Shown here in pieces: positions 1,515 through 6,627 of a stretch of 6,627 nt of DNA. A program made the position numbers and the translations under genes. Positions within the stretch are counted from its first letter, which is position 1. Each line of letters opens with the position of its first letter. The DNA is from a virus. The notes below the pieces were generated by a model that ran no database searches, was not told the origin of the DNA, and saw only the letters and a program-made list of their open reading frames with translations. The stretch is taken from IMG/VR virus record IMGVR_UViG_3300011563_000040. One strand, given 5' to 3'.

Positions 1515-1730
1515 CGGTCTGCTATGTAATGAAGAACACTAGAAGAAAAATATTAAGTGAGTGTCTACGAACTGACACAATGACAATATGAATATTTCCC
1601 CCTCTGATTACGCTTTTGCTTTTACTGGATGTATTAATGAATAATTGTTTTTTCTGTGGAATTTTCAAATTACTACTTATTATTGCTTTAATTATAGGTT
1701 TATTTTATTGGCTTTTTTCTTATTAGATTG

Positions 1731-1829
1731 ATTTCGCATAATGTAGTCCAGATTATGTTACATAGCCGATTTGCAACTATCTCCAGAGCAAATCGGCGTG
1801 ATTTAACATCAATCTGCATTATGCGAAAT
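1731..1829 (+). other. CTXphi-type attP: two inverted dif-like XerC/XerD sites that fold into a forked ssDNA hairpin
   Basis: Site A, + orientation: ATTTCGCATAA (1731-1741), TGTAGTCCAGA (11 nt), TTATGTTACAT (1753-1763). Site B, reverse complement of 1801-1829: ATTTCGCATAA, TGCAGAT (7 nt), TGATGTTAAAT. Intrastrand pairing: 1731-1743 with 1817-1829 (13 bp), a 5-nt bulge, 1749-1754 with 1811-1816, 1755-1760 with 1804-1809, 1762-1763 with 1801-1802, then an inner perfect 10-bp stem GCCGATTTGC (1765-1774) with GCAAATCGGC (1788-1797) and a 13-nt loop. The arms match the gammaproteobacterial dif consensus (E. coli dif GGTGCGCATAA-TGTATA-TTATGTTAAAT). Confidence 0.7.
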
Positions 1830-1888
1830 CGACAATGCCGACGCACGCGAGGAGCTTCGACGAGTGTAAGGAGGCATGGGAGAGGATA

Positions 1889-1934
1889 GGGCACACTGCT
1901 ATCTAATAGTGTGCCTGACTCCGGAATTTCGGAG
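1889..1934 (+). promoter_or_regulatory. Candidate (+)-strand rolling-circle origin: nick-site hairpin plus an adjacent palindrome
   Basis: GGCACACT (1890-1897) pairs with AGTGTGCC (1908-1915) around the loop GCTATCTAAT. The loop/stem junction reads CTAATAGTG, sharing the 8-mer TAATAGTG with the Ff origin nick region GTTCTTT/AATAGTGGACT, which sits in a similar hairpin. A second inverted repeat, CTCCG-GAATTT-CGGAG (1919-1934), follows, analogous to the Ff GTTCCAAACTGGAAC repeat. The surrounding 1830-1960 is visibly more GC-rich than the rest of the genome. Confidence 0.45.
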
Positions 1935-1964: not shown

Positions 1965-2171
1965 TTAATCGGCTTTTTTTATTTCTTCGATATATTTAGT
2001 TACATCTTTTGCCTTTATATCATTTAAGTGCTTATAAATTAAGGCATTTATTATATCTGCTTCCTCAATTCTTTCTTTAGTTTCAATAATAAAATCTAAT
2101 GATTTCTCTTTAATTCCCTCTACAAATTCACCGCGGATACGGTAAGTTTTTGATAAGTCTGATTTTTTCAT
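1965..2171 (-). CDS. Small divergent transcriptional regulator, possibly ribbon-helix-helix type (68 aa from the second Met); candidate phage repressor
   Basis: It is the only well-supported minus-strand ORF and is divergent from rep, as rstR is in CTXphi. AGGTG lies 4 nt upstream of the ATG at 2171; the track start at 2186 has no Shine-Dalgarno sequence. The sequence MKKSDLSKTYRIRGEFVEGIKEKSLDF..EADIINALIYKHL fits a short N-terminal beta strand followed by two helices. Confidence 0.55.
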   Translation of the reverse strand: MKKSDLSKTYRIRGEFVEGIKEKSLDFIIETKERIEEADIINALIYKHLNDIKAKDVTKYIEEIKKAD

Positions 2172-2280
2172 GCAACACCTGAACATTGTTTACTGTGATA
2201 TTGTTATTTTGTCATACGTTGCGTTGTTACGTGTGATTCTGTTATATTTCTGTTAAATAGTTGCATGTGATGTTGTTGCA
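2172..2280. promoter_or_regulatory. Divergent control region with three direct repeats TGTGAT-NN-YGTT (candidate operators or iterons) and a possible rep promoter
   Basis: TGTGATATTGTT (2194-2205), TGTGATTCTGTT (2232-2243) and TGTGATGTTGTT (2266-2277), each preceded by a GTT(T)AC or GTTGCA-like element. The possible promoter is TTGCGT (2219-2224), an 18-nt spacer, then TATATT (2243-2248). The third repeat ends 3 nt before the rep ATG. Confidence 0.45.
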
Positions 2281-3501
2281 ATGCTCGATCATTTACGTTT
2301 AGCAGTTCCGATTCATCAGGCTTATGTCAGAAGTATTGACAATCACCATTTCTTTAATGGTGATTTGCTTGATTACGATCTTCCTGCGGCAACTAGACAT
2401 GTAAGTAAAACTGATGAGGGGGAAACGATAACAGGGGAGTTGTATCACCCTTATGAGTCTATCCCTAGTTCTTATACAGATATGGCAATGAAATTCTTTG
2501 CTAATACGATGAATGCAATGCCATATGTTGAGATTAAAGCTTCTCCGCTTAAGTTGCTTCAAGGCCATAACGTTTTTGGTTTTGAATGTATCAAGTTAGG
2601 TGCTACTGAGATGCTTGGCATGCTTATAGATTCATATCCTAAGTTATGCGGAATCTTGGATTTTGAGAACATTGAGGTCTTACACCTTGATACAACGTAT
2701 TTAACACGTTTACCTCATCAGAACATGGTTCAGCCAGTTCTTGATTATTTAGCTAATGTTTCAGCTGGGCATCGCAAAGCTAAGCAAGTTAAGTATTCAA
2801 ACTATATTACGTGGGGCAACGAAGATGGACGTTATATCCGCCCTAAAGCCTATGGCAAATTTGAAGAGTTAAAAGCCCAGTTACATAAAGTCCAGAAACA
2901 AGCGGACAAGGGCTGTATGCGTTCTAAAGCATTAGTTATTGCAATGCACGATGTTATGAAGTTTGCAAACGCAACTGTGCGTTTTGAAGCCCGTATTTGT
3001 AAAACTTATTTAGCTAAAAACGGGTATCCAACGAATCTCTGGAAATTAATTGATTTACAGCAGGAACAACCAGATCTGCTTCTTAAATTATGGCATGTAG
3101 CGTTTGACCCGATTTTAAATACGCTAAAGGGTGAGAGTATGAATTTTTCAAGTGATGGTGATGTATTAGACCTTCTGCGTTCCAAGCTTTATAAAATTAC
3201 TAAATCAGGTAAGACCAGTTATACGAAGGCTGATAATGCTTTCAAATTTTATTGCTTACTGCGTCAGATCGGTTGGGAACAGATTAAAGAAATCTATAAA
3301 GAGTCTACGTTCTATGACAACGTTAATGCTCTTAAAGATGCAGGACTACCCAAAGCTCATTTACAGAATCTTCATAAGAATCCTAACGGTACAGTCATTC
3401 CATTTGTTCGTCTTGTTGAAATTAAGTTTCAAGAACAGTTGCCACCAGATTATCAAATTCCAGTTTCTAGATATGCCGAAAGAATCGGTTTAGTTGCCTA
3501 A
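2281..3501 (+). CDS. Rolling-circle replication initiator (gpII / RstA-like phage replication protein), 406 aa
   Basis: This is the largest non-structural ORF. It lies immediately upstream of an approximately 89-aa ssDNA-binding candidate, in the canonical inovirus position. The N-terminus MLDHLRLAVPI and the segments KAYGKFEEL and VRFEARICKTYL resemble, from memory, motifs of phage gene II/X and CRI-type replication proteins. This is not verified by any search. Confidence 0.75.
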   Translation: MLDHLRLAVPIHQAYVRSIDNHHFFNGDLLDYDLPAATRHVSKTDEGETITGELYHPYESIPSSYTDMAMKFFANTMNAMPYVEIKASPLKLLQGHNVFGFECIKLGATEMLGMLIDSYPKLCGILDFENIEVLHLDTTYLTRLPHQNMVQPVLDYLANVSAGHRKAKQVKYSNYITWGNEDGRYIRPKAYGKFEELKAQLHKVQKQADKGCMRSKALVIAMHDVMKFANATVRFEARICKTYLAKNGYPTNLWKLIDLQQEQPDLLLKLWHVAFDPILNTLKGESMNFSSDGDVLDLLRSKLYKITKSGKTSYTKADNAFKFYCLLRQIGWEQIKEIYKESTFYDNVNALKDAGLPKAHLQNLHKNPNGTVIPFVRLVEIKFQEQLPPDYQIPVSRYAERIGLVA

Positions 3502-3513
3502 GAGGTTAAGCAA

Positions 3514-3783
3514 ATGCAAGTTCAATTTAATAAACGTTCGATTTCACCATCTGTATTTAAAAAAGATGACAAGATTTATTTCAGCACAACAGTATTTTCG
3601 CCAGTTCGCTATAACTTGAATTTTGGTGAAGGAATGATGCCAGTTGAACAGATGAAATCTGTTCTGGAGCAGTGTGCTGAAAATGCTCAGGATGTCGAAA
3701 TTGAATTTACTGAGTCACAAACTAAGTTTGGCCCAGTTATGCAAATTTTCAGTGTTAAGCCGTTGCCGAAGAAACAGCCATGA
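3514..3783 (+). CDS. Probable ssDNA-binding protein (gpV / RstB positional analogue), 89 aa
   Basis: AGAGG lies 8 nt upstream of the ATG. The size is close to Ff gpV (87 aa), and the ORF sits directly after rep. The call rests on position and size only. Confidence 0.5.
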   Translation: MQVQFNKRSISPSVFKKDDKIYFSTTVFSPVRYNLNFGEGMMPVEQMKSVLEQCAENAQDVEIEFTESQTKFGPVMQIFSVKPLPKKQP

Positions 3784-3976: not shown

Positions 3977-4004
3977 ATTTCGCATAATGTATAATATGTT
4001 AAAA
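3977..4004 (+). other. Third dif-like XerC/XerD site with a canonical 6-bp central region
   Basis: ATTTCGCATAA-TGTATA-ATATGTTAAAA matches E. coli dif (GGTGCGCATAA-TGTATA-TTATGTTAAAT) at 23 of 28 positions. The first 15 nt (ATTTCGCATAATGTA) are identical to 1731-1745. It lies in the intergenic gap between the replication and structural modules. Confidence 0.65.
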
Positions 4005-4132: not shown

Positions 4133-4324
4133 ATGGCAAGCATCTGTGAAATTGTCGAAGAGAGCACAAATGCCTGCCTTAAATGGGTCGAATACAAGTC
4201 TGTAATCGACCAGTTAGCAATCACAAAGGATGATGCTCTCATTATCTTAACACCGATAGCGGGTATCTACGTCCTTTTGATTGGGTGGTCTTTCATTATG
4301 CTCATCTACCACCAGAGCAAATAA
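4133..4324 (+). CDS. Small membrane-anchored protein (63 aa, C-terminal TM); candidate minor virion or morphogenesis protein
   Basis: An acidic N-terminal half is followed by the hydrophobic segment LIILTPIAGIYVLLIGWSFIMLIY. It sits immediately upstream of the major coat gene, the slot that gVII/gIX occupy in Ff. Confidence 0.55.
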   Translation: MASICEIVEESTNACLKWVEYKSVIDQLAITKDDALIILTPIAGIYVLLIGWSFIMLIYHQSK

Positions 4325-4337
4325 AAGGAAAATCCTC

Positions 4338-4613
4338 ATGACTTACAAAAACGTAGAAGTAATTAAAGCTCCAGTTGCTCAAGTTAAAAAAACTTGGTTC
4401 CAACGTCATTGTCCTACTTTTGCTGCTGCTGGTGCTGTTGTTGGTTCAATGGTAGTTGCTTCTAGTGCAAATGCTGCTGGCGTTGCTGATTTGTTTACCG
4501 AAATTTCAACTGAAATGGGTGGCGTTTCAACTGGCGTTTTGTCAATTCTAACAATCCTTGCTGGTGTAGTTGCGTTGCTTCTTGGTTGGTCTTACGTCAA
4601 GAAAGCACGTTAA
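4338..4613 (+). CDS. Major coat protein precursor (pVIII-like), 91 aa; predicted mature form 45 aa
   Basis: AAGGAA lies 7 nt upstream of the ATG at 4338, which I prefer to the track's TTG start at 4281. The leader ends ...VVASSANA|AG, an AxA cleavage site. The mature peptide AGVADLFTEISTEMGG-VSTGVLSILTILAGVVALLLGWSY-VKKAR has the classic acidic N-terminus, hydrophobic core and basic C-terminus. A strong terminator follows the gene. Confidence 0.85.
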   Translation: MTYKNVEVIKAPVAQVKKTWFQRHCPTFAAAGAVVGSMVVASSANAAGVADLFTEISTEMGGVSTGVLSILTILAGVVALLLGWSYVKKAR

Positions 4614-4665: not shown

Positions 4666-4749
4666 ATGGAAGAAGCATCTATTTTTTACTGGTTACTGGT
4701 CATTGTGCCTTGGATTGCATTACATGGGATATGGAGAGTGATTAAATGA
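4666..4749 (+). CDS. 27-aa hydrophobic mini-protein (pVII/pIX-like candidate), not in the ORF track
   Basis: A purine-rich Shine-Dalgarno sequence AAGGGGGGAG (4655-4664) precedes the ATG at 4666. The translation is MEEASIFYWLLVIVPWIALHGIWRVIK. Its TGA (4747-4749) overlaps the ATG (4746-4748) of the pIII-like gene as ATGA, and a GGAGAG Shine-Dalgarno sequence for that gene lies inside it. Confidence 0.6.
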   Translation: MEEASIFYWLLVIVPWIALHGIWRVIK

Positions 4750-6005
4750 AAAAGTTTCTTTCTGTCTTTTTTGCATTCACTCTTTATTTTAATTTAATTA
4801 CACAAGCCAATGCAGCAAGTCTTGGCGGATGGTCTTTGGGTTCTCCAGTTGCTTCTGGTGCTTCTGCAATTGTCAACGGAACAAAAGAAATCATCTTAAA
4901 CGGTGCTTCAAAAATTGCGAAAGGCACTGCAAAAATAACCCCTAATGCTTCACAAGTTGCAAATGTACTCAAGCGTGGTGCAGCCGGTTATGCCTTGTCT
5001 GTTGCTGTTGAACAGCTTTTAGGAGCGGTTGATTGGGTTTTAGATCCGGCGAATAATCAGATTGTTTATACAAAGCCTTCTGATTTACCAGCGCCAAATG
5101 ATCAATTTGTCTGGATTTGGGCGGGCTGCTCAAGTTATCAAGCATGTACGGTCGAGGGTATTATAGGTTCTACACCACAGGCTGCTTGTCAAAAATGGGC
5201 TGATGCACGTCAACCCCTCACTGTATCTAGAACTATTTCAATGTCAGAAATTCGAGCTAGATGTATCTTTAGTGATAATACACAGCAAGATGTACAACGT
5301 GTTGCAAATCCTGCTTATGATCCGGACGCAGAAGATCAGAAGAAAACATTACCGCTTGAAACTGTAGCTCAAAAAGTTATTTCTAATGCTGCTGGTGGTG
5401 ATGTATCAGCTCAACAAGCGATTACTGCTGCTGCACAAGATGTAATTAATGAAGCAGAAAATGACAGTGCTAAAGCTGCTCCGATTATTCAGCAACTAGA
5501 AGCATCAAAAGCAATTGAAGCTGAAAATACGGCAACTGGTGAACAGACACAAAACCCTGCAAATCCTAATGTCACTAACATAAAACTAGAATTTCCAGCA
5601 TTCTGCGGTTGGGCGCCTACCGTCTGTGAAGCTGCTCAAACTGTAATTTCGTTTCCAGTCACTCTGACGAGCTGGTGGAATACAGCAAATCAAAAAGCAG
5701 ATTCATGGGCTAACTCAATTTCTCAATCATGGGCAGAAGCCAAAGAGTGGGCAACCTCAGAGAAAAATGAAGATACAGAACTAGATATACCTGATCAGGA
5801 ACAACCAGATATAGACACAGATATAGCTTTCGGTGGCATGTGTCCTGATGATCGACAAGCTGAAATAAACATGGGTGTCGGTGTTATCAAAATGCCTATT
5901 TCATATGAGCCGATCTGTACAACAGTATCAACTGCAAAGCCTGTTCTTATCTTTGTCGGATTTTTTGTGGCTGCTTTAATTATTGGTGGAGTAAAAACAG
6001 AATGA
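4746..6005 (+). CDS. Minor coat / host-adsorption protein (pIII / OrfU-like), 419 aa
   Basis: It has an N-terminal signal peptide MKKFLSVFFAFTLYFNLITQANA|AS, 8 Cys in pairs, an A/Q/E-rich low-complexity linker, a Trp-rich segment and a C-terminal membrane anchor (PVLIFVGFFVAALIIGGV). It sits between the major coat and pVI-like genes. Confidence 0.75.
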   Translation: MKKFLSVFFAFTLYFNLITQANAASLGGWSLGSPVASGASAIVNGTKEIILNGASKIAKGTAKITPNASQVANVLKRGAAGYALSVAVEQLLGAVDWVLDPANNQIVYTKPSDLPAPNDQFVWIWAGCSSYQACTVEGIIGSTPQAACQKWADARQPLTVSRTISMSEIRARCIFSDNTQQDVQRVANPAYDPDAEDQKKTLPLETVAQKVISNAAGGDVSAQQAITAAAQDVINEAENDSAKAAPIIQQLEASKAIEAENTATGEQTQNPANPNVTNIKLEFPAFCGWAPTVCEAAQTVISFPVTLTSWWNTANQKADSWANSISQSWAEAKEWATSEKNEDTELDIPDQEQPDIDTDIAFGGMCPDDRQAEINMGVGVIKMPISYEPICTTVSTAKPVLIFVGFFVAALIIGGVKTE

Positions 6006-6274
6006 GTTTATCTACTATTTTACAAAGCATTCAAAAGGGAACATTAAAGAATATTCTTACTGGCGCTGGTCTTGCTCTTACTACTTCTTCAATTTCCTAT
6101 GTCGCTTTTCAACAGGCTGTAAATGCTGTTCAACAGCAAGCGTATGGAATACCGGGTGACTTGATTGCAATCCTTCATTTAGCTGGATTTGATATTTTCT
6201 TTTCAACTGTACTTGCAGCAATCGTGACTAGACTTTCACTGAATGCTGGTAATTTGGCATTAAAGAAGATTTAA
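6002..6274 (+). CDS. pVI / Ace-like small hydrophobic minor coat protein, 90 aa
   Basis: ATGA overlap with the pIII-like stop. It has hydrophobic segments (LTGAGLALTTSSISYVAF and LAGFDIFFSTVLAAIV). It lies between the pIII-like gene and zot, as gVI does in Ff and ace does in CTXphi. Confidence 0.65.
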   Translation: MSLSTILQSIQKGTLKNILTGAGLALTTSSISYVAFQQAVNAVQQQAYGIPGDLIAILHLAGFDIFFSTVLAAIVTRLSLNAGNLALKKI

Positions 6275-6275
6275 A

Positions 6276-6627
6276 ATGATACGTTTAGATACTGGCACTC
6301 CAGGTGCAGGAAAAACTTTAATTAATGTTCGTGATATTGTTCAGTTAGAAAAAACTAATCAGAAAAATATCATTCTTAATCCTAAAATATATGAAACTAA
6401 TTTAAAGGTTATCCAGGATAAAAAAATATCTGATGATTTTTTATATTGTGTTCGAAAAGTAGGCCAAGGTGTTGATCTAAAAGAACAGGTTTTTCATTTT
6501 GATAATACCTATTTTGATTTCTTAAAATCATCTGAACGTATAGAAGAATATTTTTCTCGCTCTATTTTTTATAATGAAATTATTGAACGAGTTAACAATG
6601 AACATAATTTAAAACTAAATAAAGTTC
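6276..6627 (+). CDS. zot: Zot / pI-family phage assembly ATPase, N-terminal part (continues at 1..1214 across the circular junction; about 480 aa in total)
   Basis: ATG at 6276, two bases after the stop of the preceding ORF. It translates MIRLDTGTPGAGKTLINV..., containing the Walker A P-loop GTPGAGKT. The frame is open to the window end and matches frame 3 at the window start (6507 corresponds to 3). The ORF track missed it because no stop codon falls inside the window. Confidence 0.85.
   Translation, partial: MIRLDTGTPGAGKTLINVRDIVQLEKTNQKNIILNPKIYETNLKVIQDKKISDDFLYCVRKVGQGVDLKEQVFHFDNTYFDFLKSSERIEEYFSRSIFYNEIIERVNNEHNLKLNKV
6505..6627. repeat. Terminal redundancy, right copy (identical to 1-123)
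   Basis: Same 123-bp string as the window start. Confidence 0.9.

Follow-up and report, generated by a model that had tools for sequence, protein, structure and literature searches.

IMG/VR record IMGVR_UViG_3300011563_000040, all 6627 nt of which we analyzed (the "window"), is a circular inovirus genome. It has 6504 nt of unique sequence plus a 123-nt assembly repeat, and we consider the assembly to be circular because this terminal repeat matches the window's start. We think it likely that the genome belongs to a temperate filamentous phage of Acinetobacter radioresistens that uses the host's XerC and XerD to integrate at dif, by way of a folded attachment site (attP). An initial annotation of the window had proposed a folded attP in the style of the phage CTXphi, and this proposal is supported in silico by the predicted fold, by the location of integrated relatives at dif, by the sequences of the left and right junctions (attL and attR), and by a crossover that we mapped with a single-nucleotide polymorphism (SNP). 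The fold is also conserved among related phages, and its inner stem shows covariation.

The attP hairpin is built from two inverted XerC/XerD-type sites, A and B, which lie 37 nt apart and are just where the initial annotation had placed them (Table 1). As it had also noted, the central regions are 11 nt (site A) and 7 nt (site B), and neither site is a normal duplex substrate; two inverted XerC/XerD pairs without normal duplex spacing are also what CTXphi has. We folded positions 1725-1835 of both strands with a DNA energy model, as had been suggested, and each strand formed a very stable hairpin: -30.9 kcal/mol (z = -8.9) for the + strand and -31.1 kcal/mol (z = -9.6) for the - strand. None of 200 shuffled sequences folded as well. 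In the + strand, the XerC arms are paired at 11 of 11 positions, and there are four further pairs in the stem (1729-1730 with 1830-1831 and 1742-1743 with 1817-1818), so the XerC side is perfectly paired for 13 bp (1731-1743 with 1817-1829), as predicted. Within the central region, TG pairs with CA, CAGA pairs with TCTG, and TAGTC (1744-1748) is bulged in the minimum-energy fold. The expected bulge is present, then, and the remainder of the region is mostly paired and not open. The XerD side is nearly perfect, with one extrahelical base in the bottom strand (C1810) and an open outer end, and the inner 10-bp stem is present and perfect. The 13-mer ATTTCGCATAATG occurs three times in the window, versus 0.02 times expected by chance, and neither a terminator-like site nor an Rfam family was found over the hairpin region. 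A hairpin with two dif-like sites is far beyond chance. In other words, the sequence folds in silico as a CTXphi-type attP should, with a 5-nt bulge, and conservation of the fold and compensatory changes support this.

To see how widespread the hairpin is, we searched IMG/VR with the 25-nt core of site B, which retrieved 89 viral contigs. Across all loci, 122 of 133 copies of site B had a partner site A upstream, and the other 11 were cut by contig ends or lay in rearranged arrays. The same design is found in the two nearest GenBank phages by protein similarity, Acinetobacter phage M02 (Rep 41% identical) and Dulem virus 65 (Rep 64% identical), whose folds have z = -9.1 and -13, respectively. 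Among the relatives, the central region is 10-13 nt in site A and 7 nt in site B. The site A version has a consistent pattern, TGT followed by a hypervariable stretch and then (C)AGA; that is, the predicted bulge is free to vary and the predicted paired parts are kept. It begins with TGT, as dif does, in 75 of 79 distinct hairpins. The spacers between the sites range from 33 to 101 nt and include several unrelated stem sequences, and all of the 47 distinct ones fold into a stem-loop.

We quantified covariation by folding each sequence separately and counting pairs in an alignable subgroup. In the window's subgroup, 4 of the 10 pairs of the inner stem show compensatory changes and 98.9% of cells are paired. 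This level of pairing was reached by 0 of 500 shuffles, and slid registers gave just 32-38%. (RNAalifold found almost no covariation in a mixed alignment of 23 hairpins, in which unrelated inner stems are misaligned.) The presence of site B at 122 of 133 sites, together with the compensatory changes in the inner stem, implies selection on the fold. This bears on the idea that site A recombines with dif as an ordinary duplex via XerC, as in VGJphi, and that site B and the stem are irrelevant. All of the junctions described below do involve the sequence of site A only. But normal Xer sites have 6-8 bp between the XerC and XerD arms, and across the family the arms of site A are 10-13 nt apart, which is too far for a normal XerC-XerD complex. 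Given this and the selection on the fold, we consider it extremely unlikely that site A acts alone.

Judging from the genes next to the prophages, the host is A. radioresistens. The LysR gene that adjoins the prophage is 100% identical to a protein named A. radioresistens at NCBI, a gene for the identical Rep is found beside this LysR gene in many public contigs, and A. radioresistens prophage arrays encode a protein identical to the window's Rep. An empty dif site is present in the metagenome contig L123, which has an MFS transporter gene, 103 nt, the site ATTTCGCATAA-TGTATA-TTATGTTAAAT, and the LysR gene. This host dif is very close to the published dif of A. baylyi ADP1 (GATTCGTATAATGTATATTATGTTAAAT; PMC2731167). 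The phage's XerC arms match it at 11 of 11 positions and each XerD arm matches it at 10 of 11, which bears out the suggestion in the initial annotation that the arms are of the Acinetobacter/Moraxellaceae type.

Integrated copies were expected to adjoin dif, and they do: the arrays are situated between the same MFS and LysR flanks that surround the empty dif, and we could read both types of junctions. At the left end of the array in L004 (a 61-kb contig), homology to the window starts exactly at position 1731. The junction reads host flank (...accacagc), ATTTCGCATAA, site A's central region TGTAGTCCAGA, site B, and then the Rep genes. Such an attL, with the host flank, the XerC arm, and the central region of site A, is present in at least 10 contigs, with two hairpin subtypes (L004/5, L015-17, L019, L041, L045, L059, L073, and L091), and in five IMG/VR contigs the MFS gene is directly upstream of it. 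More broadly, in L004, L010, L041, L059, and L073, the central region of site A is joined to the host flank or to the dif of a preceding element. The matching right ends were found by a targeted pattern scan. In L133, we found Rep, a third dif-like site (site S, described below), virion genes, Zot, 150 nt, and then ATTTCGTATAA-TGTATA-TTATGTTAAAT. The 150 nt are 91-97% identical to the sequence before window-type site A in seven other loci, and L129, L132, and L134 have the same kind of right end. The sole match from a scan of genome contigs, a truncated contig from A. pollinis, starts inside a dif-like site, so no junction can be read from it.

A natural SNP shows where the strands were exchanged. 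Position 7 of the XerC arm is C in the host, but in one phage lineage it is T, both in site S and in the dif left behind by that lineage. In tandem arrays (L010, L015, and L019), the leftmost junction has the host's C variant, and the internal junctions have the preceding element's flank and the T-variant arm, followed by the central region of site A. (One internal junction in L010 has the window's own type of site A.) This pattern implies that the exchange fell in the interval from position 7 of the XerC arm to the first base of the central region, and this is where XerC cuts the top strand. As in CTXphi, then, we see a single top-strand exchange at the XerC position, with the phage's overlap at attL and a regenerated dif at attR. 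Many arrays nevertheless end at a hybrid of S and dif instead of at an attR with a regenerated dif. The initial annotation had expected the junctions at dif to fall within 1731-1829; the left ends do, at the 1741/1742 border, but the S/dif hybrids lie outside this range. We judge the expectation to have been too strict and do not take the hybrids as a refutation.

The junctions also contain information about the strand. In integrated copies, the joint is always site A and never site B, and the orientation of the prophage is constant, with the gene-sense strand continuing the top strand of dif. Both observations fit a hairpin of the + strand, while a hairpin of the - strand would not give this result.

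The integration mechanism of CTXphi is described in PMC3442271 and PMC9226527, and we propose a similar scheme for this phage, in which three parts (catalysis by XerC alone, an ssDNA [single-stranded DNA] substrate, and resolution by replication) are what we infer by analogy. In the single-stranded + strand, site A would fold onto the complement of site B and would be clamped by the inner stem-loop. The fold would mimic a dif duplex, with a perfect XerC arm, a center in which TG and CAGA are paired and five top-strand bases are bulged, and an imperfect XerD arm. XerC would cut the top strand at 1741/1742 and exchange it with the top strand of dif. The first 3-4 bases of the central region (TGTA) match dif's TGTATA, which would stabilize the exchange, and the mismatch on the XerD side (AGA vs. 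ATA) should block a second, lethal exchange. Heterology on this side of the overlap is consistent with an exchange by XerC only. Replication would then resolve the pseudo-Holliday junction, which would leave the prophage between a non-functional attL (host flank, XerC arm, and site A's central region) and an attR that comprises the phage sequence preceding site A and a new, functional dif. This regenerated dif could accept further elements, which would give rise to arrays.

Several points weigh against this scheme. In most arrays, the element adjacent to dif is a module that ends in an S/dif hybrid, so a second recombination route is needed. Our clean examples of attR are from relatives, not from window-identical copies. 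L116 was another candidate for an attR, but it is ambiguous: its lineage has its own 69-nt host flank, and the assembly might be chimeric. (In this lineage, about 69 nt of the host sequence from the left of dif lies between the phage's 69-aa open reading frame [ORF] and site A, at L028 4569-4662, L029 4472-4538, and L116 6828-6923. It was probably captured from an integrated array.) That XerC and XerD would bind and cleave the fold is expected from the analogy with CTXphi. Also, the hairpin of the - strand is equally stable (-31.1 kcal/mol), so the energy of the fold does not by itself explain the choice of strand. Instead of folding from the single-stranded genome, the hairpin might arise when the replicative form, which is double-stranded and supercoiled, extrudes a cruciform. 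The two strands are equally good at folding, and a cruciform would give junctions identical to those we observed, so the sequence data do not separate the two forms. A cruciform would expose both hairpins, yet we found only site A junctions in one orientation; on the other hand, the central region of site A is the better match to dif (TGT vs. TGC for site B), which could explain the bias. In the case of CTXphi, experiments identified ssDNA as the substrate (as cited in PMC3442271). Overall, we consider a cruciform to be unlikely, and we favor the folded + strand.

The second recombination route probably involves site S, which was not part of the initial annotation. Site S lies in the intergenic gap that divides the replication module from the virion genes (Table 1). 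In M02 it is syntenic, and nearly every relative has it 2.0-2.7 kb downstream of site A, with XerD arms that have the form ATATGT... and are more diverged. Some complete circles seemed to lack site S, but a relaxed scan found a copy with a more diverged XerD arm in all but two or three of them. Because S and dif are directly repeated, a full XerCD reaction between the two would excise the intervening DNA. At the right end of many arrays, we found S/dif hybrids, in which a module-specific flank and the XerC arm of S are fused to the host's XerD arm and the chromosome. These hybrids show that S is a real recombination joint, which has been used repeatedly with dif and would thereby have left 2.1-kb RS1-like remnants beside it. 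No junction of the host flank to S was found among 10 left ends or in a scan of metagenomes. Also, a comparison of L024 with the window shows that the two halves of S have different partners across phages: the left half stays with the replication module, and the right half stays with the virion genes. One contig has an odd variant: at about 6740-6840 of L119, site A has been replaced by an S-type site, whose fusion to the inner stem and site B lies 7 nt downstream of it. This fusion is a deletion product that formed away from the Xer cleavage position.

Like the attachment sites of TLCphi and the gonococcal genetic island (PMC9226527), site S combines a good XerC arm and a dif-identical central region with an XerD arm that is degenerate (ATATGT...). 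Of the three sites in the window, only S is of the TLCphi type, that is, a duplex with a degenerate XerD arm (ATATGTTAAAA vs. TTATGTTAAAT) and a dif-homologous overlap. A VGJphi-type site would be a duplex whose overlap matches dif on the XerC side only, and none of the three looks like this: the overlap of S matches at 6 of 6 positions, and those of A and B are 11 and 7 nt long. There are also differences from TLCphi and the gonococcal island. We found no Pfam match to an XafT-like (DUF3653) protein among the window's ORFs, although a non-homologous factor is possible; S lies inside the genome, in addition to a hairpin attP; and no junction of S to the host flank was found.

Might the duplex S be the true attachment site, as for VGJphi, TLCphi, and the gonococcal island, and the hairpin a packaging signal or a complementary-strand origin that happens to resemble dif? 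With its perfect XerC arm and exact dif central region, S is nearly universal in the family, and most arrays have an S/dif hybrid as their right end. Also, phages of the Ff type have large functional hairpins in their intergenic region. But all left ends coincide with site A, precisely at the border of the arm and the central region, and junctions of the pre-A sequence to dif exist as well, while a host flank joined to S is missing from the 10 left ends and from the metagenome scan. Furthermore, the arms of the hairpin match dif at 11 of 11 and 10 of 11 positions, and a variable bulge with conserved paired parts is not expected of a packaging signal. We consider it very unlikely that S, and not the hairpin, is the attachment site. 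We also dropped a related idea, that full-length phages enter via S and only satellites enter via the hairpin. It was based on our first data set, in which 37 of 37 host-type dif sites were preceded by the end of a replication module, but the targeted scan then found right ends in which Zot and the pre-A sequence lead into dif.

Replication modules of 2.1-2.3 kb, each with the hairpin, a divergent small ORF, Rep, and a second small ORF, are found at dif in several arrangements: alone (L017), in tandem (L015, L019, and L079, with three copies), or on both sides of a full prophage (L004, L014, L022, and L024). In addition, six module-only contigs of 2.1-2.3 kb have terminal repeats (L046, L047, L054, L063, L081, and L093), and these could be RS1-like satellite circles or collapsed tandem arrays. 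The modules resemble RS1, the satellite of CTXphi, in that elements with the hairpin, ORF, Rep, and ORF are found alone, in tandem, or flanking full prophages at dif. Unlike RS1, no rstC-like antirepressor was identified in them, their circular contigs may be collapsed arrays, and they could arise by deletion between S and dif. In other words, the modules could be true satellites, or they could be remnants of the XerCD-mediated loss of the virion genes. In arrays like that of L004, recombination of S with dif would release a circle of 6470 bp that, by its sequence, would hold exactly one whole genome.

The virion genes are not tied to one type of replication module. The 89-aa protein at 1211-1480 of the window is found, 100% identical, in a virion block that is linked to a Rep of the Rep_trans family (L014, L024-L027, and L032). 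In the window, this virion block is accompanied by a Phage_CRI Rep, versus the Rep_trans Rep in those six contigs, with the same sites A, B, and S. A shared virion block with different Reps indicates that modules are swapped at Xer sites. As a tentative model, which we rate at a little under even odds, the hairpin would be a one-way entry to dif, and the duplex S would let the host's XerCD cut the virion genes away (leaving RS1-like remnants for immunity and replication), release a complete replicative circle from arrays of a remnant plus a prophage, and swap replication and virion modules among phages that are unrelated. With this extra duplex site, the phage may have a way to excise and to exchange modules that is missing from CTXphi. 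If modules are swapped at S, this would be the phage counterpart of the shuffling of pdif modules in Acinetobacter plasmids.

Hijacking of XerCD by an ssDNA hairpin was worked out for CTXphi and is assumed for a few enterobacterial relatives. Like CTXphi and its relatives CUS-1phi and Ypfphi, the phage that we describe is filamentous and has no integrase. As in CTXphi, its attP(+) forms when the + strand folds at two inverted XerC/XerD sites whose central regions are over-long and differ in length (PMC3442271). Other shared features are integration at dif with a crossover at the XerC cleavage position, so that dif is regenerated on one side; tandem arrays that include replication-module-only elements resembling RS1; and the order of the genes, with a divergent small ORF, Rep, a small ORF, and then the virion genes and Zot. 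The differences begin with the host, which is in the Moraxellaceae, and with the arms, which follow the dif of Acinetobacter. Instead of CTXphi's open loop, the central region is largely paired in our in silico folds, with a top-strand bulge of 4-7 nt. The spacer is a short one of 33-40 nt, although in subgroups it reaches 70-101 nt, and the duplex dif-like site S is an addition at the boundary of the replication and virion modules. To our knowledge, no such duplex site is present in CTXphi.

The pdif modules of Acinetobacter plasmids are similar in their host genus, in the consensus of their Xer arms, and in that modules bounded by Xer sites are exchanged between replicons. However, pdif sites lie on either side of cargo genes and have centers of 6 bp, whereas the inverted pair A/B encloses a 37-nt stem-loop with no ORF and has centers of 11 and 7 nt, so it is not a pdif module. 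A 2020 paper proposed hairpin Xer substrates for pdif modules and found that XerC and XerD from A. baumannii bound such oligonucleotides (PMC7399989). A 2024 paper on A. baumannii described filamentous prophages that are flanked by replication/regulation modules. It likened them to CTXphi and Ypfphi in that they "probably use host integration machinery", but it gave no mechanism and no attachment site (PMC11209303). We searched the literature for a hairpin-type attP in an Acinetobacter phage and found none, which does not prove that there is none. Overall, this is a known mechanism in a new host lineage, at the level of a family, and the added duplex site and the modular arrays make it a variant of the CTXphi system and not a copy. 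The hairpin strategy may have arisen independently here, or it may descend from a common CTX-like ancestor.

These results concern a large family of Acinetobacter inoviruses. M02, whose host A. baumannii is a hospital pathogen, belongs to it, as do at least 89 more viral contigs. They explain the replication modules that were noted in 2024 beside Acinetobacter filamentous prophages (PMC11209303). Natural arrays record both recombination products, and the SNP maps the crossover. The family also provides a second and independent system, with a different dif sequence, for testing what makes a folded site a substrate for XerC only.

The rest of the window is typical of the Inoviridae: a small circle with a rolling-circle Rep, a Zot/pI ATPase, and a major coat protein, and with nearly all ORFs on the + strand (Table 1). 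Megablast of the whole window against GenBank phages found no nucleotide relatives, so the relatives are at the protein level only. We compared the ten main ORFs to Pfam and PHROGs and found no match to an integrase, transposase, or other recombinase (the only matches to known functions or domains were Rep, Zot, coat, and DUF2523), which agrees with the initial annotation's claim that the circle encodes no integrase or recombinase. Two small ORFs match uncharacterized PHROGs families, and neither had a relative in a sequence search of the PDB. From their positions, the divergent 73-aa ORF is a putative counterpart of rstR, and the 89-aa ORF downstream of Rep may encode an ssDNA-binding protein.

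Table 1. Features of the window (positions in the 6627-nt sequence)
Feature	Position	Strand	Details
Folded attP(+) hairpin	1729..1831	+	Packaged-sense strand; minimum-energy DNA fold
Site A (attP1-like)	1731..1763	+	ATTTCGCATAA-TGTAGTCCAGA-TTATGTTACAT; XerC arm 1731-1741, 11-nt central region 1742-1752 (bulge 1744-1748), XerD arm 1753-1763; from sequence and fold
Inner stem-loop	1765..1797	+	Closes the XerD side of the hairpin; perfect 10-bp stem 1765-1774/1788-1797
Site B (attP2-like)	1801..1829	-	ATTTCGCATAA-TGCAGAT-TGATGTTAAAT; bottom strand of the hairpin; XerC arm 1819-1829, 7-nt central region 1812-1818 (TGCAGAT), XerD arm 1801-1811
Small hairpin	1890..1915	+	GGCACACT...AGTGTGCC; between the attP hairpin and the ORF at the rstR position; inverted-repeat search
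73-aa ORF, divergent	1965..2186	-	Position of rstR in CTXphi; matches phrog_5219 (uncharacterized family)
Rep, rolling-circle replication initiator (pII/G2P type)	2281..3501	+	Pfam Phage_CRI (7e-41) and G2P_X_C (2.7e-12)
89-aa ORF	3514..3783	+	Position of gene V / rstB; matches phrog_19820 (uncharacterized family)
Site S	3977..4004	+	ATTTCGCATAA-TGTATA-ATATGTTAAAA; perfect XerC arm, 6-bp central region of host dif, degenerate XerD arm
Inovirus coat match	4281-4613		Weak, below the Pfam gathering cut-off
TspB-like adsorption protein	4746-6005		
DUF2523 protein	6002-6274		
Zot/pI ATPase	6276 to 1214	+	Spans the circle junction
Terminal direct repeat, 123 nt	6505..6627 = 1-123	none	Identical copies

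The small hairpin at 1890-1915 may be a replication origin or a packaging element. In the A. pollinis contig, which encodes a Rep with only 78% identity, the segment from 1890 to 1943 shows 91% conservation. Directly upstream of this hairpin, the segment 1838-1888, which is rich in G+C and in purines, is strongly divergent among close relatives.

We also noticed other elements at or near dif-like sites. Six viral contigs (L125-L128, L130, and L131) have a perfect copy of ATTTCGCATAATGTATATTATGTTAAAT with a flank that the six have in common but that differs from the one described above (...ctaaccttgtaattg / ... / taaatatataagtatgtcac). Of these contigs, five had no match among nine query proteins from the phage or its host, and L131 has a weak Rep match (34% to the Rep of M02). 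This site may be the dif of another host, or it may belong to another type of element. In seven contigs (L020, at 20690-20717 and at 9800-9860 on the reverse complement, and L021, L027, L034, L124, L129, and L133), an island lies at the outer end of the XerD arm of dif. It has its own tyrosine integrase and defence-like genes, and its far end repeats ...ATAAGTTAAAT, which implies that the dif locus of A. radioresistens is also targeted by an integrase-bearing island. In L019, from the complete A. radioresistens genome CP131483, an insertion sequence with an HTH_23/28 transposase (11226-12551) abuts the XerC arm of the regenerated dif. Phages, satellites, and this integrase island all land in the dif region of A. 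radioresistens, which makes it a crowded insertion target.

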